Notes: a model not told the origin generated them from the sequence alone. Shown: positions 17,451-64,000, counted from the first letter of the stretch. The stretch is 64,000 bases of DNA from an uncultured Eubacteriales bacterium (GCA_902799465.1 CADCAS010000001.1:80055-144054); one strand, 5' to 3'. Numbers and translations: made by a program.

Positions 17451-17526
17451 GCCAATGTAGCTCAGTTGGCAGAGCAGCGGTTTCGTAAACCGCAGGTCAA
17501 GGGTTCGAGTCCCTTCATTGGCTCCA
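17451..17526 (+). tRNA. tRNA-Thr (anticodon CGU), CCA encoded
   Basis: Cloverleaf folded by hand: acceptor GCCAATG/CATTGGC, anticodon loop TTCGTAA, T-loop GGTTCGAGTCC. Confidence 0.9.
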
Positions 17527-17532
17527 CCCCAA

Positions 17533-17606
17533 CGAGGTGTAGCGCAGTTTGGTAGCGCGTTTGGTTCGGGACCAAAAGGTCGCAGGTTCAAATCCTGTCA
17601 CCTCGA
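17533..17606 (+). tRNA. tRNA-Pro (anticodon CGG)
   Basis: Acceptor CGAGGTG/CACCTCG, anticodon stem-loop TTTGG-TTCGGGA-CCAAA, T-loop GGTTCAAATCC. Its 3' 42 nt are part of attL. Confidence 0.9.
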
Positions 17607-17607
17607 C
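17565..17607 (+). repeat. attL core (3' part of tRNA-Pro)
   Basis: TTCGGGACCAAAAGGTCGCAGGTTCAAATCCTGTCACCTCGAC is identical to 56952-56994. Confidence 0.92.
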
Positions 17608-17766: not shown

Positions 17767-19029
17767 TTATTGTGGGTTGTCGAGCTGGGGATCTTCGGGG
17801 GTGAGGGCGGTTTCGATCAGGCGCTGCATGGCGGCGGCGGACTCCTGGTCGCGGCGGCGGATGGCGTGAGCGTAGATGCGAAGGGTGGTGCTGGCGTCCT
17901 CGTGGCCCAGGCGGGAGGCGACGGCCACGGCGTCGATGTTATTGGCGAAGAGGAGGGTGGCGTGGGTATGGCGGAGGTCGTGGAAGCGAACGCCCTCAAA
18001 GCCGTTCTCATCGGCGAACTTGCGGAACCACTTGGACGGGGTGTCATGGTGGACTGGAGAGCCGTCCCAGGCGCAGATGATGCGACCGCAGCCGCGCCAG
18101 CGATCTCCGAGGAAAGTGGCGGCATCCTCGTGGTACTTGCGGGTCTCCTCCAGCAAGGCCATCATGCCGGGCGGCAGGTCTATGGTGCGGACGCCGGCTT
18201 CTGTCTTGGGATCGTCGACGTAGTTGCCCTTCTCCGGGGTATACTTGAGCGCCCGGTGGATGTCGATACAGCACTCCTCCCAGTTGACATCGGACAGCTC
18301 CAGCGCGCCGACCTCACCCAGGCGCAGGCCGCAGAGCAGCGCCAGCAGCACGGCGCAGCGCAGGGGCAGGGATTCCTCCTTCGCCAGGCAGCGGAGCAGC
18401 TGGACAGCCTGGCGGTCATCAAGAAAGTGGACGCGCTTCTTCTTCACCTTGGGACGGTCCACGCGATCCATGGGATTGACACTGAGATACTGCCACTGGA
18501 CGGCCTTGTTCAGCATGTAGCTGATGCAGTCGTAATAGTGGCGCACGGTGCGGTCAGAGAGCTTCCGGGGCTCCGGGGCCTCGCGTTCCCGGTCGGCCTT
18601 GCGCTTGCGCTGCTCCGCGGGGATGGCGGTGGTGCGGGCGTCGTCCTCCCGGATGGAGTTGATGAACGTCGTCAGCTGCATGGGGGTGAGCTTGCGCAAC
18701 GGGATGTCTCCCAGCGCGGGGAGTATGCGGCTGCTTAAAAAAAACTGGTAGTTCTTCGCGGTGGTGGGCGTGCAGTTGGGCGTGACGTGCTCCTTCATCC
18801 AGAGCTCAGCGAACTCCCGGACGCTGATGCCGCTGTCGTGGATTTGCTTGCCCTCTGCGATGTCCAGCTGGAGCTGGGCGGCGGCCAGCTCCGCCCTGGC
18901 CTGCTGCTCCATCTTCGACATGCCCGCCGGGAAGGTCAGCGTGCGCCGGATCCACTTGCGGCCGTCGGCCACGGAGGTGCGCACGCCCACGCGCCAGGTG
19001 TTGGGGCCGCGCTGTTCGATGGATGCCAT
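17767..19029 (-). CDS. int: tyrosine recombinase / phage integrase
   Basis: 420 aa from the ATG at 19029 (GAGGTG RBS). C-terminal catalytic region HDLRHTHATLL...LGHEDASTTLRIYAH. Lies adjacent to attL. Confidence 0.93.
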   Translation of the reverse strand: MASIEQRGPNTWRVGVRTSVADGRKWIRRTLTFPAGMSKMEQQARAELAAAQLQLDIAEGKQIHDSGISVREFAELWMKEHVTPNCTPTTAKNYQFFLSSRILPALGDIPLRKLTPMQLTTFINSIREDDARTTAIPAEQRKRKADREREAPEPRKLSDRTVRHYYDCISYMLNKAVQWQYLSVNPMDRVDRPKVKKKRVHFLDDRQAVQLLRCLAKEESLPLRCAVLLALLCGLRLGEVGALELSDVNWEECCIDIHRALKYTPEKGNYVDDPKTEAGVRTIDLPPGMMALLEETRKYHEDAATFLGDRWRGCGRIICAWDGSPVHHDTPSKWFRKFADENGFEGVRFHDLRHTHATLLFANNIDAVAVASRLGHEDASTTLRIYAHAIRRRDQESAAAMQRLIETALTPEDPQLDNPQ

Positions 19030-19076
19030 AGAATCACCTCGTAAGATATTTCTGTAGGGGGGTGTGTCGAAAAAAC

Positions 19077-39016: not shown

Positions 39017-39640
39017 ATGCCTAACGATAACAACACTGCCCTTCAGGGGGCGAATGCCTATTCCGAGGGCTACTTTTACGGTGTCCTCGACATCTATTAT
39101 GCGGTGATGAAGACGCCGGACGGCCCGAAGGTGAAGCCCACCTATGATCCCTACGAGGTGCTGGGCAAGACCATCGAGGTGACCATCACGCCCAATTACA
39201 AGGAGGGCAAGGTGTTCGCGTCGAACGTGGCCACCCGCAACGAGAAGCGCGTGGACAGCTACACCGTGTCCATCAACCTGGACAAGGTGCCCTACGCGGT
39301 GCGGGAGGAGATCCTGGGCCGGATGAAGGACTCCAACGGCGTGCAGATCATCAAGGGCAATCAGATCGCGCCCTATGTGGCCATCGCCTTCGCCCTGACG
39401 CTGGACGACGGCAGCAAGGAGCTTTGGACCCTGTACAAGGGCAAGTTCTCTGAGATGTCTCAGACCGGCCACACCGACAGCGATTCCATGACCTATCAGC
39501 ATCCGACCATCGAGGCGACCTTCATCCGCCGCGAATGCGACGACGCGCTGGCTGCCATCGCCGCCACCGCGGACGAGAATGTCATGGAGACCGTGGAGGC
39601 CGGCTGGTTCGAGCAGGTCTACGAAGTGCCCGCGGCATAA
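39017..39640 (+). CDS. major tail protein (phi13-family-like)
   Basis: 207 aa upstream of the chaperone pair; no sheath gene is present. Confidence 0.75.
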   Translation: MPNDNNTALQGANAYSEGYFYGVLDIYYAVMKTPDGPKVKPTYDPYEVLGKTIEVTITPNYKEGKVFASNVATRNEKRVDSYTVSINLDKVPYAVREEILGRMKDSNGVQIIKGNQIAPYVAIAFALTLDDGSKELWTLYKGKFSEMSQTGHTDSDSMTYQHPTIEATFIRRECDDALAAIAATADENVMETVEAGWFEQVYEVPAA

Positions 39641-39652
39641 GGAGAACGATCA

Positions 39653-40036
39653 ATGGAGAACAAGGAAGTAACGGGGCGGGATATTTCCCGTCCCACCGAT
39701 CATCTGGAGCTGGGCGGCGTTGACTATCCGCTGGCCTTCGACCTGGCCTGCATGCGGGTAGCGGAGGACGTTTATGAGGTCCAGTACGGGCGCAACGTGA
39801 ACTTCGCGAACATCGTGATGTATCTGGCGGCGGGCAAGCTGGGCGCCATCATGGCAATCCTCTACGGCGCGCTGCTGTCCGGGGCGAAGGCGCACAAGGT
39901 CGAGCCGCTGACCTGGGAGGAGTTCACGGAGAAGTTCCGGCTGACCAGCATCCCGGCGGTGAAGGAGCTGCTGATGGAGCGGGTAAAGGACGCGCTGCCG
40001 AAGGCGGAGGGCGAGGGTGAAAACCCTCCTCAGTAG
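39653..40036 (+). CDS. tail assembly chaperone (gpG-like)
   Basis: 127 aa, acidic, positioned after the major tail gene. Confidence 0.7.
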   Translation: MENKEVTGRDISRPTDHLELGGVDYPLAFDLACMRVAEDVYEVQYGRNVNFANIVMYLAAGKLGAIMAILYGALLSGAKAHKVEPLTWEEFTEKFRLTSIPAVKELLMERVKDALPKAEGEGENPPQ

Positions 40037-40269
40037 GCCGGGAGGACGACCACACCTTCCCCTGGCTTGAGCTGTATTCCGGGGCGCTGGAGGTGGGAAT
40101 GGACCCGGCAACGTTCTGGGCATCCAGCCCGCGGGCGGTGTTTCTGGTGATTCGGGAAAGGCGACGGAGGACCTCATCCGTCTCGCGCTATGCGCGATCC
40201 ACCTTCCCCAGAGGGGAAGGCAAAGGACGACCGGCGAAGGTGCGGCTGAACAGATTGCCGCACCCGTGA
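40021..40269 (+). CDS. -1 frameshift extension of the tail assembly chaperone (gpT-like); no start codon of its own
   Basis: The -1 frame is open from 40021 (a TGA lies at 40018-20) and overlaps the last 16 nt of the chaperone gene. Hand translation KPSSVGREDDHTFPWLELYSGALEVGMDPATFWASSPRAVFLVI... Confidence 0.6.
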   Translation, partial: KPSSVGREDDHTFPWLELYSGALEVGMDPATFWASSPRAVFLVIRERRRRTSSVSRYARSTFPRGEGKGRPAKVRLNRLPHP

Positions 40270-40280
40270 GGATTGCAGAA

Positions 40281-52342: not shown

Positions 52343-55300
52343 GTGCCGAACAACAGCGAGGGCATCGGAACGAAAGTAAGCGTTAAGGGCGATAAAGAGT
52401 ATAAAAGCGCATTACAGCAAATCAGCAGGCAGCTGACCGTTCTTAATACCGACATGAAGGCCAGCCAATCCGCTTTTGGTGCCCAGGCTGAGACCATGGA
52501 CGGTATGCACGACCGCCTGGAAAAACTCAATGAAATATATGAGGTCCAGGCGAAAAAGGTGGAGCTGATCCGGGAACAGCTGGAGAAGGCCAAGGCGGAA
52601 TACGGCGAGAACAGCAAGCAGGCGGATGATCTGCAAATTGCCCTGAACAAGGCCACGGCGCAGATGAACGGGACGGCGAACCAGATCACCACCACGGAAC
52701 AGGGTCTGAAGACGCTGGCGGACGCCCAGCATCTGGCCGGGGACGCGACGGACGCTTCCTCGATGACCTTGAAAGAGGCGGAGCAGGCACTGAAGAACGC
52801 CGGCGAGGGCGCTGAGGAGATGGCCGGTTCTGTGGGCGACGCCGGGGACGCCGCGGGCGAGGTCGGCGACGCCGCAGAGGACGCCAGCGGCGGCGTGGGC
52901 AGCTTTGCAGAGTCGCTGCTGGAGGCGGCAGGGGCCGTGGGCGGCGGCTTCCTGGACGGCGTGCAGGGGCTTCTGGGCGCGCTGGGCAGCATTGGCGGGG
53001 CGTGCGTGGAGGCGCTGGGCGAGGCGTTTGACCTGGCAAAGGACGCGGGCAAGTATGCCGACGATCTGCTGACGCTGTCGAGCCAGGTGGGCGTGGACAC
53101 AGACAAGCTCCAGCAGTGGCAGTATGCCAGCAACTTCATCGACACGTCGGTGGAAACGATCACCGGAAGCATGACGAAGCTGACGAAGAAGATGGACTCC
53201 GCGCAGGAGGAGGAGAAGAAGAACGCGGAGAAGTGGCAGGAGCACCTGGACAAGATCGCGCGGGGCGAGAAGGACACCTGGAGCGAGGTCACCACGGCCC
53301 GGGACGCCTTTGTGAAGCTGGGTGTTTCCTGGAAGGACTACAACGGCAACCTGCGCGACAACGAGGAGGTCTTCATGGACCTCATCGACGCGCTGGGGAA
53401 GGTCGAGAATCCGGTGGAGCGCGACGCGCTGGCCATGGAGCTGTTCGGCAAGAGCGCCAAGGAGCTCAATCCGCTGATCGAGGCCGGCAGCCGCGCTTGG
53501 CGGGAGATGGGCCAGGAAGCGGAGGCCATGGGGACGGTGTTCTCCGAGGGGAACCTCGAGATCATGGGCGGCTTCGACGACACCATGCAGATGTTCAACG
53601 CCACGGCGGACGCCATGAAGAAGACCATCGGGCTCAAGATGATCCCGATGTTCGAGCCGCTGGTGCAGGCCGCGGGCCAGAGCATGGGCAGGCTGTCGAA
53701 GGCGCTCCAGGACGGGGCGAGCCCGACGGAGCTGGCCGGTGTGCTGGACGAGGTCGCGAACAGCCTGATCGACGAGCTGACGGTGACGTTCGTGCGGCTG
53801 GACGAGATGGTGCCGGAGGCGGTGAAGGTCATTTCGCAGGTGATCAGCCATGTGGCCGAAGCGCTGCCGGAGCTGGCGCGGGTGGCGCTGCCGGGGGCGA
53901 TGAAGCTGTTGCAGGCGGTGCTGGATGGGCTGTTGCAGATCACCGGGCCGCTGGCCACGCTGGCCACGGAGCTGGTGACCACGGTGGCGGGGTTTCTGAT
54001 CGACAACCTGCCGGACATCGTGGACGCGGGCACGGATCTGTTGCTGGGGCTGGTGGACGGTATCGTGGACGCGCTTCCGGAGCTGATCCCGGCGGCGGTC
54101 GAGATGGTGGTGAAGCTGGCGGAAGGGCTGATTCAGGCCATCCCGAAGTTAGTGGAAAAGCTGCCGGAGATCGTTGATGCCATCTGGGACGGTCTGGTGA
54201 ACACGGACTGGCCGGGACTGGGCAGTGAGGTGCTGAGCTCGATCTGGGGCACGCTGGGAGCGCTGGGCGACGACCTGCTGGGGATCTTCACGGACGCCAT
54301 CACGAACATCACCGGTCTGGACTTCGCCTCCATCGGCAGCGGCATCCAGAGTGCCATCGAGGGCATTCTGGGGTCGGACGGCAGCTTCCTGTCGGGGCTG
54401 TTTTCCGACGCGCACGACGACATCGAGGGAATCGACTGGGACAAGCTGGGCGAGAACGTCGGGAAGGCCGGTTCGGCGCTGGTGAATATGACCGGCGAGG
54501 CGCTGGCGGGCGGCTTTGAGGCCGGTTATGCGCTGATCGAGAATATCGAATGGGGCAAGCTGGGTGAGACGGTCGGCAACATCGCCAACGGGCTGGTGAA
54601 TCTGACCGGCGAGGTGGCTGCGGCGGGCTTCGAGGCAGCGCACGGGCTGATCGAGGGGCTGGACTGGGAAGGCCTGGGCAAGACCGTGGGCGACGTGGGC
54701 AACGGGTTGGTGAACCTGACCGGCGAGGTCGCCGCGCAGGGGTTCCAGAACGCGCACGATCTGATCGAAAATATCGACTGGAGCGGGCTGACGGACACGC
54801 TGGCGGCGGTGCCGAACGGGCTGATCGAGCTGTCCGGCGACCTGATCGCGCAGGGTTTCCGGAATGGGCACGACCTGATCGAGAAGATCAACTGGGGCGG
54901 TCTGACGGACACGCTGGCAGCGGTGCCCAACGGTCTGATCGAGCTGAGCGGCGAGACGCTCTCCGGGGCGTTCTCGGCGGCCTATGACATCATCAGCGAC
55001 ATTCCCTGGGACGAGCTGGGGAACGAAGTCGCGGACGGCCTGGGGCGCGCCTGGGGCATCGTCAGCGGCGTTGGCGACGTGGCGCTGGGCTTGGGCGAGG
55101 GCGCGGTGATGGCCGGTCAGCAGGGCGTCGGGGCGCTGAAGGACTGGATCGCTTCATGGCGGGACGACGGCGAGGTGGAGAGCGAGGCCACGGCCGTCGG
55201 CGCGCAGGTGATCACCGACGTGGGCACCGGCGTAACCAACGAGGTGCCGCAGCTGGAGACCACCGCGCAGGAGGCCGCGGACGCGCTGCTGACGGCGATC

Positions 55301-55963
55301 CGGAATGTACTGACAGAGTCGACGGTGGAGCAGATCGGCAAGGATCTGGACGAGGACGTCTGGACCGGCGTGGTGCTGGGCGAGGACGAGCTCTTGCAGG
55401 TCGTGGCCGGGGTTGCCGGGGATTCCTTTGACGAGCTCAGGGACGCCGTGGAGGACGCCGGGTTTGCCGAGATCGGCCGGCAGATGGACAACGGGATTGT
55501 TTCAGGCATTTACGAGAACAGCCGGTACATCAAGGAGGCGGCCAGGGCGGCGGCGCAGGCGGCTTACAATGCCGCGAAGAGCGAGCTGGGGATCGCCAGC
55601 CCGTCCAAGAAGGGCGGATGGTTGGGCGAGATGTTCGACCTGGGCTTCGCCGGTGGATTGATCGACAACGCCGATGAGATCGAGAGCGCCATGGGGTATC
55701 TCAATGAGCTGACCACTGCGGAGGCTGAGCCGGTGATGGTCGGAGGGCCGATGCAGCGAGGGTTTGCTGGATTTGAGATCGATTACGGGCAGATGCGGGA
55801 GGCTTTCATTGAGGCCATCGAGGAGACCGGTGTGGGCAATATGGTGATGCAGATGGATAAGGAAGTCGTCGGCGAAACGCTGGAGCCGGTCACCAGCAGG
55901 GCCACCCGGCAGCGGCAGCAGAGGTATGTCAAGGGCAGGACGGCAAGGCTGGTGATAGGATGA
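52343..55963 (+). CDS. tail tape-measure protein (1206 aa), in a non-canonical position
   Basis: GTG start behind AAAGGGGGG. N-terminal coiled coil. TMP core LQQWQYASNFIDTS..., ALAMELFGKSAKELNPLIEAG. 38-aa tandem repeats. Confidence 0.85.
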   Translation: MPNNSEGIGTKVSVKGDKEYKSALQQISRQLTVLNTDMKASQSAFGAQAETMDGMHDRLEKLNEIYEVQAKKVELIREQLEKAKAEYGENSKQADDLQIALNKATAQMNGTANQITTTEQGLKTLADAQHLAGDATDASSMTLKEAEQALKNAGEGAEEMAGSVGDAGDAAGEVGDAAEDASGGVGSFAESLLEAAGAVGGGFLDGVQGLLGALGSIGGACVEALGEAFDLAKDAGKYADDLLTLSSQVGVDTDKLQQWQYASNFIDTSVETITGSMTKLTKKMDSAQEEEKKNAEKWQEHLDKIARGEKDTWSEVTTARDAFVKLGVSWKDYNGNLRDNEEVFMDLIDALGKVENPVERDALAMELFGKSAKELNPLIEAGSRAWREMGQEAEAMGTVFSEGNLEIMGGFDDTMQMFNATADAMKKTIGLKMIPMFEPLVQAAGQSMGRLSKALQDGASPTELAGVLDEVANSLIDELTVTFVRLDEMVPEAVKVISQVISHVAEALPELARVALPGAMKLLQAVLDGLLQITGPLATLATELVTTVAGFLIDNLPDIVDAGTDLLLGLVDGIVDALPELIPAAVEMVVKLAEGLIQAIPKLVEKLPEIVDAIWDGLVNTDWPGLGSEVLSSIWGTLGALGDDLLGIFTDAITNITGLDFASIGSGIQSAIEGILGSDGSFLSGLFSDAHDDIEGIDWDKLGENVGKAGSALVNMTGEALAGGFEAGYALIENIEWGKLGETVGNIANGLVNLTGEVAAAGFEAAHGLIEGLDWEGLGKTVGDVGNGLVNLTGEVAAQGFQNAHDLIENIDWSGLTDTLAAVPNGLIELSGDLIAQGFRNGHDLIEKINWGGLTDTLAAVPNGLIELSGETLSGAFSAAYDIISDIPWDELGNEVADGLGRAWGIVSGVGDVALGLGEGAVMAGQQGVGALKDWIASWRDDGEVESEATAVGAQVITDVGTGVTNEVPQLETTAQEAADALLTAIRNVLTESTVEQIGKDLDEDVWTGVVLGEDELLQVVAGVAGDSFDELRDAVEDAGFAEIGRQMDNGIVSGIYENSRYIKEAARAAAQAAYNAAKSELGIASPSKKGGWLGEMFDLGFAGGLIDNADEIESAMGYLNELTTAEAEPVMVGGPMQRGFAGFEIDYGQMREAFIEAIEETGVGNMVMQMDKEVVGETLEPVTSRATRQRQQRYVKGRTARLVIG
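54420..55045 (+). repeat. about six tandem 114-bp (38-aa) repeats inside the tape-measure gene
   Basis: Unit I(D/E)W(D/G/E/S)xLGxxVGxxxNGLVNLTGExxAxGFxxxHxLIE, repeated with decreasing identity. Confidence 0.8.
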
Positions 55964-56250
55964 TGTCTGGGGATGAGAAGGTGATATTGGCTGCGGCCGT
56001 AGAACGATACGGCGAGGGCGCGCAGCTGGTCAAGTGCTGCGAAGAGTTGAGCGAGCTGGCGCATGCGATCTGCAAGCGGTTCGATGTGTCTGTGGGGTAT
56101 GAGCGCGATGGCGAGGAGGTCGTCGAGGAGATCGCCGATGTCGAGATCATGCTGGAGCAGCTGCGCGTGATCCTCCGCGTGGATCCGGAGATGGAGCAGC
56201 GATGGCGGGAGAGGAAGCTGAACAGGCTGCGGAGGCGGCTGGGTGTATAG
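55960..56250 (+). CDS. MazG-like nucleotide pyrophosphohydrolase domain protein
   Basis: EELSELAHAICK ... EEIADVEIMLEQL pattern; ATGA overlap with the TMP stop. Confidence 0.5.
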   Translation: MMSGDEKVILAAAVERYGEGAQLVKCCEELSELAHAICKRFDVSVGYERDGEEVVEEIADVEIMLEQLRVILRVDPEMEQRWRERKLNRLRRRLGV

Positions 56251-56850: not shown

Positions 56851-56951
56851 AGTGTCGAGAAAATAGACGCAGGTTGCACAAAACACTCTTTTTTCATATC
56901 GTAATTCAATAAAATCAGACTGCAAATTACCGTTTAACGAATTATAAGCCC

Positions 56952-56994
56952 TTCGGGACCAAAAGGTCGCAGGTTCAAATCCTGTCACCTCGAC
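56952..56994 (+). repeat. attR of the prophage, doubling as the left att of the tandem element (tRNA-Pro 3' remnant)
   Basis: Exact 43-bp copy of 17565-17607. Confidence 0.92.
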
Positions 56995-57145
56995 CACCCC
57001 AAAAAGCCTTGAAAACACAGCGTTTTCGGGCTTTTTTCTTATTGCTGAAAGCACCAGTTTCCCTAAAATTGCCCTAACCAGCATTGAAATGAGCCTCAGC
57101 GTGATTAATACAGGGTGCTACATATGGAAGATTTCACATCAAATA

Positions 57146-57212
57146 CAGGTTTTACAGGAATATGCAGGTTTTACAGGATATACAAGTTTTCCATATATAC
57201 AGGGTTTACAAA
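57146..57212 (+). promoter_or_regulatory. direct repeats CAGGTTTTACAGGA (candidate arm-type sites of the second integrase)
   Basis: Perfect copies at 57146 and 57165; degenerate copies at about 57182 and 57200. Confidence 0.45.
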
Positions 57213-57257
57213 CAGATAATACAAATCCTGCAGGCGACGCCTACAGGATGCGTTTAT

Positions 57258-58397
57258 CTACTCTTGTTTTTCATGTCGCTGTTGCCTTCGTTCGGCAGCT
57301 TGACGTTTCATCTCATCCGTGCTGGCGGTGTACACGTCCAGTGTAATTCCCGTGGTACTGTGCCCGGCCATAGCCGCTATGGTCTTGATGTCGGTTCCGG
57401 CCTTTTCCTCGTTGGTGATGAACGTTTTCCGCAGCGTGTGGAGCGTGACCTCTGGATGGCCGAGGCGGTTACGGATTCGGACAAAGGCGTTTTCAATCGT
57501 CCTGTGCGGCATCGGCGACCCGTCCTCGCGGGTGAACACCAACCCGTTGTCATTCTGCCATTGATTCCCGGCGCGGAGCCTGTTTTCATTCTGGCGGCGT
57601 TTCTCGTCCCTCAGGAAGGCGAGCACGTAGGGCGGGACGTAGATACTCCGTGCCTGTTTGGTTTTGGTTCGATCCTTGACCTCGCGCACGCTTCCTTTTG
57701 TGCGCTTGCGTTCAAGCTGGCCTGATATGAGTATCTCGCCGGATTTCAGATTGATATTCTTCCACAAGAAGCCTAACACTTCACTAATTCGTGCTCCCGT
57801 ATGTAGCGCAAGCAAGAATATATTCTTGTAGGGGGAGGCGTTAAACTCTTTCTCAAACGCCGTTTGTAAATCAGATTCCATGGCAACCGGCGCTTTACGA
57901 ATGATGTGTGGCAAATCCAGATCCGAGGCAGGGTTTTTCGGTATGAGTTCCATTTTGACGGCATCTTGAAGCGCTGCCGAAAGGACACCAACGATATTAT
58001 GGATATATTTCGGGGATTTATCCAGACCATTCACGAACTCTTGACACTGAGCGCGACGAAGTTCCTGCAGTCTGGCTTTACCTAACCTCGGTTTGATGTA
58101 TAACCGACAAATTGATTCATAGTTGGTATAAGTACCAGGTTCTATATTCCGTTTTTTTTCTAACCATTCATCTACCCATTGAGACAGGTTCTTTTTTTGA
58201 GGCGAGACATATTGCCCGGTAGTTATCTTTGCTTGCACATCACGCAGTTTCCTCACACATTCAGATTCGCTGGTCGCGCTGACGGATTTTTGCATGTGGG
58301 TGAAGGGGTCGGTGTACCGCCCTTCATAGTAAACACGTCCCTTGACATACTTCTTCCTGACAGATCCAAGGCCATTACTATTCTTTTTCCCTGTCAT
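57258..58397 (-). CDS. int: tyrosine recombinase / integrase (second element)
   Basis: 379 aa from MTGKKNSNGLGSVRKKY...; catalytic region HTLRKTFIT...AGHSTTGITLDVY. Confidence 0.9.
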   Translation of the reverse strand: MTGKKNSNGLGSVRKKYVKGRVYYEGRYTDPFTHMQKSVSATSESECVRKLRDVQAKITTGQYVSPQKKNLSQWVDEWLEKKRNIEPGTYTNYESICRLYIKPRLGKARLQELRRAQCQEFVNGLDKSPKYIHNIVGVLSAALQDAVKMELIPKNPASDLDLPHIIRKAPVAMESDLQTAFEKEFNASPYKNIFLLALHTGARISEVLGFLWKNINLKSGEILISGQLERKRTKGSVREVKDRTKTKQARSIYVPPYVLAFLRDEKRRQNENRLRAGNQWQNDNGLVFTREDGSPMPHRTIENAFVRIRNRLGHPEVTLHTLRKTFITNEEKAGTDIKTIAAMAGHSTTGITLDVYTASTDEMKRQAAERRQQRHEKQE

Positions 58398-58881
58398 GCG
58401 GATCACCCATTTCATCAGCATCAAAAAAAGATGTCCTGTTCCTAAGGATAGCGAATAAATCATCACGTGACATAACGCCATCTTTCACAGCATCAGAGAG
58501 CTTATCAAAATCCTTGAAAAAACTAACAATAGGAAATGATGCAGTAGACAGCGAAAACTCATTATCTGAAACGCAGATTTTAAAGCTATTTTTCCCGGCT
58601 TTGATTTCTGCGAGCTGTGCAAGTATGCTGCAAATAACACTGTACTTTCCAGTGCCAAGCGGAAACAGGTGATTTATGAAATCGTCTTCGCCAAGAAGCC
58701 ACCATACAGGAACACCGAGAATTCTCGCATACTTCACTACCTCATTTATTCGTGGGTTTTTTTTGTCGTTGATATAAGAACTCAACGTTCCTGGTGCAAT
58801 CTGTAAATCTTCCGCAAGCTCTGCCTGCGTGATGCCTTTAGTGGTAATGATAGTCCGCAATCTTTCTGCAAATTCCTTCAT
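58378..58881 (-). CDS. XRE-family repressor
   Basis: HTH LRTIITTKGITQAELAEDLQIAPGTLSSYINDKK; GGAGGTG RBS. Confidence 0.85.
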   Translation of the reverse strand: MKEFAERLRTIITTKGITQAELAEDLQIAPGTLSSYINDKKNPRINEVVKYARILGVPVWWLLGEDDFINHLFPLGTGKYSVICSILAQLAEIKAGKNSFKICVSDNEFSLSTASFPIVSFFKDFDKLSDAVKDGVMSRDDLFAILRNRTSFFDADEMGDPHDREKE

Positions 58882-58921
58882 ATAGGGCACCTCCAACTTT
58901 AATTATAACGAAACATGAATA

Positions 58922-58980
58922 AATTGTCAAGCGCAAAAGAAATTTTCTTTCTTGACAATTCTTTTCGTGTATGCTATAGT
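58922..58980 (+). promoter_or_regulatory. rightward promoter with a flanking 10-bp inverted repeat (operator candidate)
   Basis: TTGACA(58952)-17 nt-TATAGT(58975). AATTGTCAAG (58922-31) / CTTGACAATT (58951-60) overlaps the -35. Confidence 0.6.
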
Positions 58981-59000
58981 GTTTTCGGAGGTGAAAAAGG

Positions 59001-59204
59001 ATGGACGCAAAAAACACCCTGGATACCGGTGCATTTACCCTCGCAGAAGCCGCAAAATATTGTGGCGTCTCGTATCCGGTCATGCTTGCATGGGTCAATC
59101 TTCCGACATTTCCTGCGATTCGTTCCGGCAGAAGGTGGGTTATCCCGAAATCCGCACTCACTGAGTGGCTGGATGCCCAGGCAAAAGCAAGGATGGAGAT
59201 TTAA
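59001..59204 (+). CDS. excisionase-family HTH protein (AlpA/Xis-like)
   Basis: FTLAEAAKYCGVSYPVMLAWVNLPTFPAIRSGRRWVIPKSAL. Confidence 0.75.
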   Translation: MDAKNTLDTGAFTLAEAAKYCGVSYPVMLAWVNLPTFPAIRSGRRWVIPKSALTEWLDAQAKARMEI

Positions 59205-59744
59205 ATGGATCTTTTTGAGCGGTTGCGAGATGAAGTTAGCGCGGAAGCGGCCGGACGCCGCTACGGATTGCGCTTTAACAGGTCTGGCCGTGCCTGGTGT
59301 CCGTTCCATCCGGATGGGAAGCATGCCGCAATGGCGTTTTACACCGATGGCGGTGCCTACTGCCACAGTTGCCACATGTCCGCTGATGCCGTCAGTCTGA
59401 CCGCGAAATTGCTGAATTTATCTCAAATTGATGCCGCGAAGCAGCTGGCGCACGATTTCAACATTACTGATGTCGATGGACGGCCTGACCCGGCGCTGAT
59501 CGAGAAGCGGAAGCGCGAATGCCAGCAGGAGCGCGAACGCAGGGAAGCGGAGAAAAATGCATTCAATCTGCGCTGGGGCCAGCTTTGTGAGATTGCCAGG
59601 GAAGCTGATGCGGAATTGCGCCGCTTCACGGATCCGGAGGTCGCATGGAACGATCCGCGATTCATCGCGGTGCTGACAGCGCTGGCGAGGGCAAATGAGC
59701 TGCTTGACATTATGTGGGAAGTGATTTGTTATGAGCGGTCTTGA
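59205..59744 (+). CDS. CHC2 zinc-finger (DnaG-primase N-terminal-like) protein
   Basis: CPFHPDGKHAAMAF...YCHSCH. Confidence 0.75.
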   Translation: MDLFERLRDEVSAEAAGRRYGLRFNRSGRAWCPFHPDGKHAAMAFYTDGGAYCHSCHMSADAVSLTAKLLNLSQIDAAKQLAHDFNITDVDGRPDPALIEKRKRECQQERERREAEKNAFNLRWGQLCEIAREADAELRRFTDPEVAWNDPRFIAVLTALARANELLDIMWEVICYERS

Positions 59745-60846
59745 TACTTTCATCATGGACGGGTACAAGTTACCTGACACTATTGTCCATGATGCAGTGC
59801 CGACACCACCGGCGGGGCCCTTGTGGAAAACCATTCAGGCGGGAAGGGGGTGTGATTTGATGTCAATGGAATTTCCTCCCATAGTCTATGCTGTGGAAGA
59901 CCTCATAACCGAAGGCTGCAGCATACTTGCAGGTCCGCGCAAAGTCGGTAAATCCTGGCTATCTTTGCAGTTGTGTCTGGCCATTGCAAACGGTACTCCG
60001 CTGCTTGGGCGGCATGTTGAGCAGGGTGAAACACTATATTGCGCCTTTGAAGATCCACCACGTAGATTGCAGGATCGGCTCAACAAACTGGGAGAACCAA
60101 TGGGAACAGATTTTTATTATCTCTGCCGAGACAAGTTGCTGACAATAAATAATGGACTTGTTGATTTTCTCGATGCCTGGTGCACTGCGCACACCCGTGC
60201 AAGAGCGATTGTGATCGACGTCCTCGCCATGGTATGGCACTCTAACAAGCGCAACCAAGATGCTTATACTGAGGCATATGACGTCATTGGGCGATTCAAA
60301 AAGCTGGGAGAGCAACATCATGTCGCCGTGATCCTGGTGCACCACGTTAGGAAAAAAAGCCGCGATGACGGTGACGATCCTTTTGACAGAATTTTGGGAT
60401 CGACTGGCATTGTGGCTGCTGCGGATACATCTTTAGTTCTGGAGCGATCACCAGCTTCGGTTCACGGAAAACTATCCGTCATAGGTCGCGACGTGCCAAG
60501 TGATGAAATCCCAGTAGCATATGAGCGATGCCGTTGGCGGCTGTCCTCCATCCTGGAGGATGATGGAAACGACGAAATCAGAAAGCTGGTGCGTGGTTTA
60601 GCTGCTTCATCCCCGGCGGGATGGATTGGTACACCATCTCAGGCTGTTGCCCAGGCTGGCGAATTTGGAGCGCGTGTAACTTCACCTGAGAGCGTTGGAT
60701 GGTTCTTCAAAAATGGCTATTGCGCCGATGTCTCGATTAGGCGAAGAACACGAACCAGTCGTGATTACATCATCAAAGCATTAGAGCCTGATAGCGATCA
60801 CCGGTTAGAGGGTCAGCCACATGAACAGATTGAAGCCGATATATAG
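59731..60846 (+). CDS. AAA_25/RepA-like RecA-fold ATPase (replication)
   Basis: Walker A GPRKVGKSW and Walker B AIVIDVL; HHVRK motif. Confidence 0.8.
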   Translation: MSGLDTFIMDGYKLPDTIVHDAVPTPPAGPLWKTIQAGRGCDLMSMEFPPIVYAVEDLITEGCSILAGPRKVGKSWLSLQLCLAIANGTPLLGRHVEQGETLYCAFEDPPRRLQDRLNKLGEPMGTDFYYLCRDKLLTINNGLVDFLDAWCTAHTRARAIVIDVLAMVWHSNKRNQDAYTEAYDVIGRFKKLGEQHHVAVILVHHVRKKSRDDGDDPFDRILGSTGIVAAADTSLVLERSPASVHGKLSVIGRDVPSDEIPVAYERCRWRLSSILEDDGNDEIRKLVRGLAASSPAGWIGTPSQAVAQAGEFGARVTSPESVGWFFKNGYCADVSIRRRTRTSRDYIIKALEPDSDHRLEGQPHEQIEADI

Positions 60847-61126
60847 AATTGTGTTCAGCTTCCACGCTGACCGCCTCGCGGCGCTGGAGCGTGATGATCA
60901 GCGCTTCGCAGAGGATACCGTGGCCGGGGTGAAGACAATCCTTATGAAAGCCGGAAGGGATCCAGTAGTGGCGGTGTTCCTGGAGGCGGTCATGGCTGAC
61001 CTTGCGCTGCAAAGCGGCGCAGAGACGCGCCTGGAGCTGTGGCGACGGTTCACAGAGCGTGTAAATCGAGAGCTGGAGAGCCTGGAAGCCTTGGAAGGTG
61101 GTGACGGCCATGGCCAAGACGGATGA
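60821..61126 (+). CDS. hypothetical protein
   Basis: 101-aa ORF in operon context. Confidence 0.45.
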   Translation: MNRLKPIYRIVFSFHADRLAALERDDQRFAEDTVAGVKTILMKAGRDPVVAVFLEAVMADLALQSGAETRLELWRRFTERVNRELESLEALEGGDGHGQDG

Positions 61127-61210
61127 CACGTCTTAATGGGCGCTGTGTGTGATCGATGGTGATGGGTCGGACTTGGCAGGCACAGTATCATCATCGAAGG
61201 AGGATCACAC

Positions 61211-61450
61211 ATGGACAGGAATGTTTTTACATTCTCCATCCCCCGGCGTGATTGCATGGTTGTGGCGACGGCATTGCATCACCTGGGCATGGAGGCAGCG
61301 GAGGGTGACGATATCGGTCACCGGGCGCTGCTGCTGGAGCGGTATCTGTGTGCCATGTGCAAGGCAGACAATGCCACACATGAGATCGAGAGTTTGCGGA
61401 TGCTGCTGTTTGCGGACAAGAAAGGAGCGGAACATGAGTATAAGAGATGA
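61211..61450 (+). CDS. hypothetical protein
   Basis: 79-aa ORF. Confidence 0.4.
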   Translation: MDRNVFTFSIPRRDCMVVATALHHLGMEAAEGDDIGHRALLLERYLCAMCKADNATHEIESLRMLLFADKKGAEHEYKR

Positions 61451-61727
61451 TTTGACCATGCCTCTGACACCGACTATGGTGACAGTACTCAGCATGGCGG
61501 TGGAAAACTTCGTGGAACACGGTATGCCGGATAAACCCATCTTCGGCTGTGACATCTCCAGGGTAACCGACAGGATCACAACTGAGTTGGATTACATGCG
61601 TCGCCTGGTTGAGCTGGAGCAGCAGGGAAACAAGGAAGCTTATGAGGAATGCCGTGCGGATTTGGCCTTGTATGAGGCCGGTCTGCTTGCCGAGATGGAG
61701 AAGCTGGAAGCGGAAACTACTTTTTGA
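61434..61727 (+). CDS. hypothetical protein
   Basis: Internal ATG (MSIRDDLTMPL...) behind an AAAGGAG RBS within track ORF 61149..61727. Confidence 0.5.
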   Translation: MSIRDDLTMPLTPTMVTVLSMAVENFVEHGMPDKPIFGCDISRVTDRITTELDYMRRLVELEQQGNKEAYEECRADLALYEAGLLAEMEKLEAETTF

Positions 61728-61747
61728 AATGGAAGGGAGAAAAGATC

Positions 61748-62245
61748 ATGAAGAATCTTGCGGCACAGAGAGAACGGGCTATGAATGCAGTGAACGGTCT
61801 GACCTTTGAACAGGTCGAAACGGCAGCACAAGTAATGGAGTTTGCTGTCCAGAAGTACGGCAACCAGCCGTCGATCCTGGCAGGATTGGCGTTCATGGCT
61901 GGCGTTGCCGTGGGGAAGAGCGAGAGCGGCAGCGGCACGAATGAGAAGAGTGTGAGCGAAGCGGCTACGGCAGAAGATGTCGTTCGATGTGTTCATGCAG
62001 GCTATGCAGGCGACATCTCTGATGACATTGAAGCACCGCTGCGCAGGCTGGCCGATGTCATGTTTGCGACAGTCGCGCACTATGAGGATATTCAAGCAGA
62101 GAAAGGATGCAAACTGACAACCACCGAAGCAAACGAGGCGGTTGAATACTTGGAAACTTTCGCGCGTAGTGTCCGATGCATCCAAGAGAACGCGCTGGCC
62201 ATATCGAAAAGGGCGGACAATGCCGCTCTGGGCGTGGCTGATTGA
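61748..62245 (+). CDS. hypothetical protein
   Basis: MKNLAAQRERAMN... behind a GGAAGGGAG RBS. Confidence 0.55.
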   Translation: MKNLAAQRERAMNAVNGLTFEQVETAAQVMEFAVQKYGNQPSILAGLAFMAGVAVGKSESGSGTNEKSVSEAATAEDVVRCVHAGYAGDISDDIEAPLRRLADVMFATVAHYEDIQAEKGCKLTTTEANEAVEYLETFARSVRCIQENALAISKRADNAALGVAD

Positions 62246-62300
62246 CCTTTTTCGTTGCGCAGGAAGTGCCAACATGTTATAATAGAGGTGGTGGTTGTCG

Positions 62301-62486
62301 ATGTCTCTTGTGGTCTGCGTCAAGTATACGGATGATCGTGAAATGCTATCCGTGACGGAAAGGTTGCAGGATTTGGATCTGCGAGTTTCAAAAGAAGCGC
62401 ATACCGACGGTGGCCGGTTCCGGCGCGTATATCTGAAATCAAAGGACGTCACAAAGGGCACAAAAGCAGCCCACCAAACCGAATAG
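62301..62486 (+). CDS. hypothetical small protein
   Basis: ATG 6 nt after an AGAGGTGGTGG RBS. Confidence 0.45.
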   Translation: MSLVVCVKYTDDREMLSVTERLQDLDLRVSKEAHTDGGRFRRVYLKSKDVTKGTKAAHQTE

Positions 62487-62533
62487 AATACACATATCAA
62501 GTACCCCACCCGGCAGCGGGTGGAAGCCTACAA

Positions 62534-62582
62534 GGCGCGGGAAACGAGATCGAGTGATCGATCACGCCCCGCGCCTGTTTTT
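62534..62582 (+). terminator. hairpin plus T-run
   Basis: GGCGCGGG ... CCCGCGCC stem, then TGTTTTT. Confidence 0.5.
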
Positions 62583-62605
62583 ATCAGGAAGGGGTGGACA
62601 ACACC

Positions 62606-62785
62606 ATGCGGTACAGCAAAGCCAGGGAGCTGGTGGTCTTCACCAGCGCGGCGACAGTTTCAACGATGATCAGGTCACCACAGCAAATCTGGGAATTCAT
62701 CAAAATGGTGACGAGGGACTTTGGAATGCCTCACCGCTGGGGCTGGGCGGAGGATCTGGATCTGGAAGGTGGTGCGGTAGCGTGA
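62606..62785 (+). CDS. hypothetical small protein
   Basis: ATG after an AGGAAGGGGTGG RBS. Confidence 0.4.
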   Translation: MRYSKARELVVFTSAATVSTMIRSPQQIWEFIKMVTRDFGMPHRWGWAEDLDLEGGAVA

Positions 62786-62947
62786 GCAAGCTGCATAACG
62801 GATTTTTAATTCCGTCGCCACCATGGCGAAGCAATAAGCCGTCGGACGGCGATCCGCACCACAGCACCAGCACCGGCACAGCTTCGGCAAGTTGGAGACG
62901 GCTGTGGGCGAAGCAGAGAAACAATCAGGAAGGGAGGGAAACAACAC

Positions 62948-63172
62948 ATGGAAAATCGGAACATAGCGAAGGTCAAGCAGCTGTGCAAGCAGCGTGCGGA
63001 GCTGGATGCGAAGCTGAAAACGCCACAGTTTAGGCGTAACACTATCGAGTGCATCCGGGCGCGGATTGCTATCAAGAATGAGATCCAGCAGATTGACAAG
63101 CAGCTGCGCGGATTGAAAAATATTGTGATCCGCGAGAAACGACCTGACTTGATTCTGCGCACGGGATGGTAA
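62948..63172 (+). CDS. hypothetical basic coiled-coil protein
   Basis: 74-aa ORF behind a GGAAGGGAGG RBS. Confidence 0.5.
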   Translation: MENRNIAKVKQLCKQRAELDAKLKTPQFRRNTIECIRARIAIKNEIQQIDKQLRGLKNIVIREKRPDLILRTGW

Positions 63173-63185
63173 TGGAGGTGACCAT

Positions 63186-63392
63186 GTGGCACGGCTGAAA
63201 GAGATCAGGATCACTGGCCGGGAAGCCTTCCGGGCAGCGGCGGGGATCCATCGCGCCTGGTATGATCCTGCTGTTGACGGTCCGCCGGAAGGCAGGAAGC
63301 ACAAGCGTACTGTGTCATGGCTGGCCAGGATCGGCGCGGCAGTTCATGCGAAGGTAATCGGAACGGTCAAGCGCCTGGTGCGTAGGGGATAA
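63186..63392 (+). CDS. hypothetical basic protein
   Basis: GTG start after a GGAGGTG RBS. Confidence 0.4.
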   Translation: MARLKEIRITGREAFRAAAGIHRAWYDPAVDGPPEGRKHKRTVSWLARIGAAVHAKVIGTVKRLVRRG

Positions 63393-63423
63393 TCAAACAA
63401 CACGTTGAACAGGAGGAATAACG

Positions 63424-64000
63424 ATGCGAGTGATGGACGAGATTTTGAGGATCGATGTGCGTAGCATCCAGGAGCGGAGCAAGCTGGAGGATGAGGCGCG
63501 AGAGCTGACCGCGAGGATTGGCGATCTGCAAAAGACCATGGATCAGGCCATTGCGGAAGGCGACACTCCGTATAATCGCGGCGTTTACGAGAGAGCTGAT
63601 TCTGAGCAGCGCAAATTGATTGCGCGTCTCGGTTTCGTGAAAAATCTGCTGGCCGTGCCCCGTCCCATGGTGACCCGGCAGGAAGTGCTGGAAGCATGGC
63701 AGCAGTACGCCGAACGCTACAACGCCAGCGTGGAGCCGGATCTGATCAAGTATGACAAGGCCCGGCGTGAGCTGGCGAAGCAGTTTCAGACGATTGTCCG
63801 CAAGCAGAATGAAGCCATGAAGGTGCGCGACAAGCTGACGGCCGTTCTGGAGGCACTTCCGGGTGGTGTGGAGTTCAACATCTTCGGGGCTGCGGATCCG
63901 GAAATGGAGCCGATTGAGGGTCTGCCTTCCACAAAGCCTGTCGTTTATGAAGGGCAGTACACCACCGGCGACCTCGCATTTTTTGCCAGTCATGGTGATC
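63424..64000 (+). CDS. hypothetical protein, 3' end off-window (not in the ORF track because no stop is reached)
   Basis: ATG after an AGGAGGAATAACG RBS. Hand translation MRVMDEILRIDVRSIQERSKLEDEARELTARIGDLQ... stays open to the window edge. Confidence 0.5.
   Translation, partial: MRVMDEILRIDVRSIQERSKLEDEARELTARIGDLQKTMDQAIAEGDTPYNRGVYERADSEQRKLIARLGFVKNLLAVPRPMVTRQEVLEAWQQYAERYNASVEPDLIKYDKARRELAKQFQTIVRKQNEAMKVRDKLTAVLEALPGGVEFNIFGAADPEMEPIEGLPSTKPVVYEGQYTTGDLAFFASHGD

Follow-up and report, generated by a model that had tools for sequence, protein, structure and literature searches.

This report concerns the right-hand end of a 64,000-nucleotide stretch of DNA from an uncultured Eubacteriales bacterium (GCA_902799465.1, CADCAS010000001.1:80055-144054; the window from here on), where a second integrative element, here called element 2, follows directly on a 39-kb prophage (prophage 1) at the same tRNA-Pro gene. 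With a probability of roughly 0.6, element 2 is a 13.4-kb integrative satellite of the cos type, built much like the phage-inducible chromosomal islands (PICIs), which supplies a tape measure protein (TMP) of its own and has as its helper a phage resembling that of locus L171. Coordinates from 1 to 64,000 refer to the whole window. The window ends within element 2, and the right part of the element was read from contig L002 (ENA ERZ1029116, 13,622 bp), which was retrieved by an exact look-up of the element's AAA_25 protein. Position 1 of L002 is position 56910 of the window (window = L002 + 56909), and all off-window parts are given in L002 coordinates. The two sequences are 100% identical across their 7,091-bp overlap, and locus L167, which is on a 137-kb contig, is the same as L002 over the entire length.

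The boundaries of element 2 are set by attachment (att) sites in the 3' end of the tRNA gene. The tRNA-Pro(CGG) gene (17533-17607, plus strand) follows a tRNA-Thr gene (17451-17526; both called by ARAGORN), and att copy 1, which serves prophage 1 as attL, consists of the final 43 nt of tRNA-Pro (17565-17607). These 43 bp recur exactly at 56952-56994 (0 such repeats expected in shuffled sequences), which is the attR of prophage 1 and forms part of att copy 2 (56952-56997, plus strand), while 56973-56997 of the same copy is the attL of element 2. The initial annotation had taken the 43-bp tRNA-Pro copy for both the attR of the prophage and the left boundary of another integrase element, distinct from the prophage and arranged in tandem with it at this core, and had proposed to look for a third copy by extending the sequence rightward; both readings were borne out, and the third copy is there. 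The 25-bp sequence GTTCAAATCCTGTCACCTCGACCAC at L002 64-88 (window 56973-56997) is repeated exactly at L002 13478-13502, off the window at about 70387-70411 in window numbering, with a period of 13,414 bp. The 25-bp core of element 2 and the 43-bp repeat of prophage 1 overlap by 22 bp. The 3' end of att copy 1 reads ...CGACTT, an end supplied by phage 1 and without CCA, and copies 2 and 3 end in ...CGACCAC.

The sequences around the core have the features of integrase arm sites. Three arm-type repeats, ACAGGTTTTAC, lie at 57145-57209 (plus strand, 0-1 mismatch), and two inverted copies are found at L002 13243-13290 in the AT-rich right arm (L002 13201-13477), five in total against 0.07 expected; that the element has arm repeats of its own had been pointed out before the right end was available. 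The left arm also has a TTTCCCTAAAATTGCCCTAA motif (57058-57077, plus strand), a candidate recombination-directionality or integrase accessory site. The right arm carries a related motif, AGTTTCCCTAAAAGTTTCCCTAAT, and has also been described with a TTTCCCTAAAA-type motif resembling the left-arm one. A terminator hairpin with a T-run (57008-57040, plus strand), which comes from element 2, stands 3' of the restored tRNA end. Because the att repeats are 13,414 bp apart and arm repeats are present at both ends, element 2 is a bounded element of 13.4 kb with a 25-bp core. As to which of the two neighbors inserted first, either order fits.

The order of genes in the left half of element 2 had been likened in the initial annotation to the head of PICIs and of the Staphylococcus aureus pathogenicity islands (SaPIs), and the profile matches agree with it at every step. 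The tyrosine integrase gene, int2 (57258-58421, minus strand; Phage_integrase 4e-22, phrog_1 1e-64), encodes 387 aa as called, or 379 aa from the next ATG. It is followed by the gene of an XRE/CI-type repressor (58378-58884, minus strand; HTH_3 2e-11), on sequence grounds a candidate for an Stl-like master repressor. Between 58902 and 58980 there are two divergent near-consensus sigma-70 promoters, TTGACA-17-TATAAT leftward (12/12) and TTGACA-17-TATAGT rightward (11/12), and an inverted repeat, AATTGTCAAG...CTTGACAATT, which overlaps the -35 box of each promoter and may serve as operator. To the right, all on the plus strand, follow the genes of an HTH_17 excisionase or AlpA-like small DNA-binding protein (59001-59204; PF12728 3e-11, phrog_66 excisionase/regulator 9e-7), a CHC2 zinc-ribbon protein of 179 aa (59205-59744; Zn_ribbon_DnaG 2e-6 and a full-length match to phrog_11992) and an AAA_25 ATPase, a RepA/DnaB-like member of the RecA family (59731-60846; PF13481 3e-28), which is a putative replication initiator or helicase. 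Close relatives of this ATPase are rare (98, 51 and 43% identity). About eight small open reading frames (ORFs) of 59-165 aa, with no match in Pfam, PHROGs or PADLOC, fill 60821-63392. The lower GC content that had been noticed over 57.3-59 kb was confirmed, with values of 0.49 and 0.415 between 57 and 59 kb and of about 0.62 elsewhere.

The criteria for PICIs were taken from PMC6092414. With regard to integration, element 2 has the 25-bp repeat at its two ends, int2 beside attL and arm repeats in both arms; with regard to regulation, homology and promoter consensus place a leftward XRE gene against a rightward HTH_17 gene, with divergent promoters and a common inverted repeat. PICIs measure about 10-18 kb and have no structural or lysis modules; the 13.4 kb of element 2 contain one structural gene, that of the TMP.

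This gene, tmp, is at L002 7935/7944-10565 and encodes 873-876 aa (PhageMin_Tail 4e-36; phrog_1272 1.6e-120). A complete tape measure gene as the main cargo had not been foreseen in the initial annotation. The protein is full length and intact, and it aligns end to end with phage TMPs, the closest of which (60-78% amino acid identity, 872-952 aa) belong to canonical tail modules of complete siphophages, at loci L168, L171, L372 and L376. The gene order of these L171-type phages is HNH endonuclease, terS (Terminase_4), terL, portal, S78 protease, capsid, connectors, Big_2 tail tube, chaperones, TMP, distal tail genes, a 448-aa RVT_1 reverse transcriptase (RT) and lysin. The RT gene lies between the tail-fibre genes and the lysin gene in L171 (19837-21183), L168 (18559-19905) and L372 (19852-21198), which is a position typical of diversity-generating retroelements.

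The DNA similarity between element and phage begins exactly at the tmp start codon and ends about 22 nt before the stop codon. Nucleotide identity to L171 stands at 23% over the 100 nt before the gene, rises to 90-95% in its first 500 nt and is 58-78% beyond, and the encoded protein agrees with phage TMPs in 92-99% of its first 200 residues. The ratio of non-synonymous to synonymous substitutions (dN/dS) of tmp against three phage TMPs is 0.15-0.18. Because of this ratio and of the jump in identity at the start codon, tmp is, to judge from the sequences, an intact and constrained gene that was recently exchanged with the L171-type phage lineage. The collinear gene order of these phages is absent from element 2, which has in common with them tmp and two short patches of 41 and 73 bp, out of phage order. 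We therefore reject the view that element 2 is a deletion derivative of an L171-like prophage, since its homology amounts to tmp and those two out-of-order patches only.

The 73-bp patch (L002 12061-12133) is 89% identical to the block between HNH and terS in L171. In an alignment of four phages and element 2 it has the conserved core CTCAACGGCGCTGGGCA(A/G)TC(T/A)TTTCCAACTGCG(C/G)GG...ATTTT...AAAAGGGGT, and the upstream flanks differ; in element 2, four GCGCCAnnnn repeats with a spacing of 10 bp (L002 12005-12041) stand directly upstream. In HNH/cos phages the cos site lies between HNH and terS, as was established for systems of the phi12/SaPIbov5 type (PMC5052747), and PICIs are known that carry cos, lack terS, and are packaged by the helper terminase, which skips cos sites (PMC6092414, PMC5052747). 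Because of its position just upstream of terS and its conservation, we read the 73-bp block as a probable cos site of the helper type. An exact 30-mer search of IMG/VR with the core gave no match. The other patch, of 41 bp (L002 11733-11773), matches the 3' end of a gp10-like gene at 92.7% identity; all phages of the L171 family have this gene ahead of that for the tail tube. The patch may be a scar, because its flanks do not match.

The rest of the cargo is less telling. An orphan of 213 aa (L002 6515-7156, plus strand, its 5' part at 63424-64000 in the window) and a 220-aa protein with a weak regulator match (L002 7244-7906; phrog_36 1.4e-4) precede tmp, and an orphan of 236 aa (L002 10568-11278) and a 64-aa homologue of ribosomal protein S21 (L002 11289-11483, window about 68198-68392; Pfam 1e-13, phrog_21469) follow it. 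Translation-related genes of this kind are known from some phages. For the 213-, 220- and 236-aa proteins the PDB sequence search was uninformative and PADLOC gave no match. Scans of all ORFs of element 2 with Pfam and PHROGs found no gene for capsid, portal, terminase, tail tube, baseplate, lysin or holin, and no relaxase, coupling protein or other transfer function. The initial annotation had named a complete virion module downstream as the mark of an ordinary second prophage, and the rest of element 2 contains none.

About 1.7 kb 3' of the S21 gene are without convincing genes, and an Rfam scan of the entire element found nothing. Besides the two patches this region has 10-bp iterons (L002 12778-12817) and two perfect 28-bp direct repeats around an AT-rich palindrome (L002 12888-12976), which are possibly the replication origin; they lie 9 kb from the replication genes and not adjacent to them, as the iteron-type origin of a PICI would. 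Five near-consensus sigma-70 promoters (10-12 of 12), all leftward, are found on the minus strand of L002 11599-12583. Two of them stand just ahead of the phage-like patches as read in reverse complement, one about 30 nt before the 41-bp patch and the other about 100 nt before the cos-like block, an arrangement from which antisense RNAs against helper late-gene regions could be made.

A second line of evidence comes from a relative of the backbone. The AAA_25 relative with 43% identity is found on contigs L006/L008, and the whole contig, L212 (IMGVR_UViG_3300031994_000909, 12,126 bp), ends in exactly the 127 bp with which it begins and is therefore an 11,999-bp circle or a concatemer. L212 has its backbone in common with element 2 (int 67%, HTH_17 50%, CHC2 46% and AAA_25 43% identity), together with the DNA flanking the att core on both sides. 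When the ends of element 2 are joined, the resulting attP aligns as a single high-scoring segment pair (70% over 279 bp) across the actual attP junction of L212. The L212 core resembles the 3' end of another tRNA and is followed by the same kind of terminator, a hairpin nearly identical to that at 57008-57040 (blastn to L006 gives 81% over 90 bp); the TTTCCCTAAAATTGCCCTAA and AGTTTCCCTAAAAGTTTCCCTAAT motifs flank this core too. As cargo, L212 has a sigma factor, a terS (phrog_51, 4e-33), a 142-aa connector-like protein (about 40% identity to a gene that many phages have some 2 kb ahead of tmp), a TMP of 588 aa (phrog_6900 1e-77) and a chaperone-like protein of 135 aa, whose 46%-identical counterpart in one phage is encoded immediately before tmp, in the position of a chaperone. 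Its TMP has no BLAST similarity to that of element 2. L212 appears to be an undescribed TMP-carrying satellite in excised form, and that two lineages of one backbone have TMPs of different origin argues for a function of these genes and against chance debris.

Several observations weigh against reading element 2 as a satellite of this kind. The element stands next to prophage 1 in all five assemblies in which its left flank is visible, and no empty site, solo copy or circular junction of element 2 itself was found, nor was the element seen in a virome; a look-up of the upstream chromosomal protein for an empty or solo att site brought up nothing on record. The CHC2 protein has the primase-type zinc finger only, and no TOPRIM or catalytic primase domain. 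No gene of element 2 could be recognised as terS or as one for capsid-size redirection or interference, the proteins that flank the TMP are orphans, and for the 236-aa protein the AlphaFold2 model is poor (pLDDT 59), with only generic ferredoxin-like matches in Foldseek. The 73-bp block could instead act as a late promoter or leader, or could, like the 41-bp patch, be a scar left by recombination. In current databases the backbone family has very few members, and searches with an AAA_25 alignment in GTDB genomes, IMG/VR and JGI metagenomes gave, among the matches listed, only distant AAA_25 proteins in other architectures. A more distant relative, L319, has no TMP. Any "TMP-carrying family" rests on two lineages because backbone relatives are few and L319 is without a TMP.

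The explanation that competes best is that element 2 is a cryptic, immobile mosaic remnant, in which a small integrative element or prophage acquired the L171-like pieces (tmp, the 41-bp gp10-like patch and the terS-leader block) by illegitimate or homologous recombination, and these are now scars without function. The 41-bp patch does look like a scar, lying as it does in non-coding DNA; the pieces of phage origin do not follow the order of the phage map, the element has never been seen alone or excised, and 1.7 kb of it is apparently non-coding. However, the att repeats are perfect and the arm sites symmetric, and all ORFs are intact, including the 2.6-kb tmp with its dN/dS of about 0.15. 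Element 2 variants from six samples are 99.7-100% identical and have kept their reading frames open; sample labels suggest ruminant gut metagenomes as the source. The exchange with the phage was recent and starts exactly at the start codon, and a diverged relative with the same backbone is circular and bears a TMP. Taken together, we consider a decayed remnant improbable, perhaps one chance in five.

Less probable again, and in our view rather unlikely, is an integrative and replicative island that is independent of phages, plasmid-like or mobilisable, with phage-derived cargo. Proteins of the AAA_25/RepA-like type occur widely among integrative elements and plasmids from many phyla, and distant relatives such as L319 have restriction-like cargo and no phage genes. 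Against this, none of the transfer functions mentioned above was seen, the cargo consists specifically of the virion protein and the terS-leader block of one phage family, and the closest relative has terS, chaperone and TMP genes and is listed in a collection of viral contigs.

The initial annotation had seen in prophage 1 a potential helper. Prophage 1 fills the 39 kb between att copies 1 and 2 and has terL, portal, major tail protein, Dit, Tal, CHAP lysin and holin genes; its integrase gene is at 17767-19032 on the minus strand. That element 2 is a satellite of this neighbor is very improbable: the two are physically adjacent with a tRNA-Pro core in common, prophage 1 is likewise an HNH/terL phage, and its TMP gene stands, oddly, at the right end, beside element 2, but the only protein similarity is that of the 23%-identical integrases, there is no significant DNA similarity, and the TMP and cos-like block of element 2 match a different family of HNH/cos siphophages, with tail genes unrelated to those of prophage 1. 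Prophage 1 has neither the cos-like block nor the TMP of element 2, and what it has in common with the L171-type phages is only HNH (39%) and terL (26%). The GC content of element 2 (0.53) is closer to that of the L171-type phages (0.55-0.57) than to that of prophage 1 (0.62), nine points higher, or of the host chromosome (0.63). Prophage 1 was accordingly rejected as the helper, and an L171-like siphophage of the HNH/cos type is predicted in its place from the homologies.

It is worth pointing out that prophage 1 has a peculiarity of its own. There is no TMP gene between its tail tube and chaperone genes (39017-40270) and Dit (40334), and the sole TMP gene (1206 aa, 52343-55963) comes after the lysin and holin genes at the right end, as several assemblies confirm. 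In a relative, MT836202.1, the orthologous TMP (43% identity) directly follows the tail tube and chaperones; because this ortholog is in the usual place, the gene of prophage 1 is taken to have been displaced by about 12 kb. Its product measures 1206 aa in the window and in L003, and 1244 aa in L001 (2499-6233) and L167. The last gene of the prophage encodes a MazG-like nucleoside triphosphate pyrophosphohydrolase of 96 aa (55960-56250; phrog_2245 2e-23), and about 700 bp between it and attR are non-coding.

At the other end of element 2 the chromosome was not reached, as every contig breaks 120-230 bp past the third att copy, and the right flank has no plasmid match. The sequence after the tRNA terminator (L002 13542-13622; L167 15590-15731) begins GTGTGCC...GGAAGTCCGG, with a weak match to group II intron domains D1-D4 (16 bits, E 0.12). 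A multicopy retroelement may have inserted there, 3' of the terminator and to the right of the third att copy. The initial annotation had thought that a missing RT might lie off the window; there is none within element 2, and the sequence past the third att copy bears at most a weak resemblance to a group II intron.

If element 2 is the cos-type satellite proposed above, its life cycle can be sketched as follows. The tyrosine integrase would insert the element into the 3' end of tRNA-Pro, with the element supplying a replacement 3' end and a terminator, and in the resting state the XRE repressor would shut the rightward operon. Infection by the helper, or its induction, would lead to derepression, upon which the integrase and the HTH_17 protein would excise the element and the CHC2 and AAA_25 proteins would replicate it, possibly from the iteron and palindrome region. 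The concatemers would be packaged by the helper's HNH, TerS and TerL proteins by way of the copied helper block from upstream of terS. For the induction by a helper and the frequent transfer in phage-like particles that mark PICIs, the one indirect sign is the circular contig of the relative L212 in a viral collection. As a speculation, four lengths of the element (53.7 kb) come close to the L171-type contigs (about 53 kb), so that packaging of multimers into full-size heads is conceivable. The element's own TMP would be built into tails made by the helper, and the resulting chimeric tails, like those of the Vibrio satellite PLE11, would presumably keep the satellite transmissible during interference with helper tail assembly, or would control tail length or DNA entry. 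At about 0.15 nm per residue, a TMP of 873 aa in place of one of 929 aa would make the tails some 8 nm shorter.

Compared with known satellites, element 2 is closest in design to the cos-type PICIs and SaPIs, such as SaPIbov5 of S. aureus and EcCICFT073 of Escherichia coli. These are likewise about 13-15 kb long with flanking att repeats and an integrase at one end, express a leftward repressor and a rightward regulator or excisionase from divergent promoters, and have a replication module of their own, the counterpart of which in element 2 is putative; they lack terS, and a copy of the helper cos region, which in element 2 is the putative one, lets the helper HNH, TerS and TerL proteins package them (PMC5052747, PMC6092414). 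More generally, the succession of integrase, leftward repressor, rightward regulator or excisionase, replication genes, accessory genes and packaging determinant is that of the Gram-positive PICI and SaPI layout. Unlike these islands, element 2 has for replication a CHC2 zinc ribbon and an AAA_25 ATPase instead of the usual Pri-Rep, has no recognised Ccm or other capsid-size gene but full tape measure and S21 genes, and has as its host an uncultured high-GC Clostridia-type bacterium.

For the tape measure gene itself, the nearest precedent is PLE11, one of the PICI-like elements (PLEs) of Vibrio cholerae. PLE11 replaces the TMP, chaperone and hub of its helper, which gives rise to chimeric tails and lets the satellite escape its own tail-assembly inhibitor; putative tmp genes have also been found in some PLE-like elements and in capsid-forming PICIs (cf-PICIs) (PMC12987554). 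Element 2 is like PLE11 in encoding a complete TMP (873-876 aa) distinct from the helper's, and L212 has a tail-chaperone-like gene as well. However, the backbone is unrelated, the predicted helper is a temperate siphophage whereas ICP1 is a lytic myophage, and the TMP is 70-78% identical to helper-type TMPs, and about 95% over its first 200 residues, as against about 20% in PLE11. No homologue of Rta, the inhibitor of helper tail assembly, and no baseplate hub gene was recognised among its orphan ORFs. According to a preprint of December 2025, TMPs are otherwise absent from satellites, apart from PLE11 and the EPIPs of Mycolicibacterium aichiense (PMC12822802). The EPIPs are also small satellites that bear a TMP without the remaining tail genes and holin (PMC12822802), but they have a serine integrase, terS, adaptor, stopper, scaffold and major capsid protein, none of which is present in element 2, and element 2 uses a tyrosine integrase and a tRNA att site. 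L212 is alike in backbone, in the architecture of its attP at a tRNA-like 3' end, in having a TMP and in lacking capsid, portal and terL; it differs in its own terS and sigma factor, its connector-like and chaperone-like genes, its other TMP lineage and the absence of an L171-type cos-like block.

The breakpoint of the exchange at the start codon and the unrelated TMP in a second lineage of the same backbone suggest that the TMP is a swappable module that matches the helper. On a bolder and distinctly tentative view, which we hold to be possible rather than probable, element 2 and L212 would represent an undescribed family of Clostridial satellites that swap in TMPs from the current helper lineage in order to make chimeric tails, with element 2 also hijacking the helper cos site and perhaps making antisense RNAs. 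The locus has a practical side, too, in that adjacency at a single att site does not by itself make a prophage the helper of a satellite, which matters wherever helper-satellite pairs are assigned automatically. The first reports of satellite tape measure genes date from 2025-26 and concern PLE11, the EPIPs and some cf-PICIs; such genes point to a new layer, at the level of tail assembly, in the conflict between helpers and satellites. To these the present locus adds examples from gut- or rumen-type Clostridia with a different backbone.

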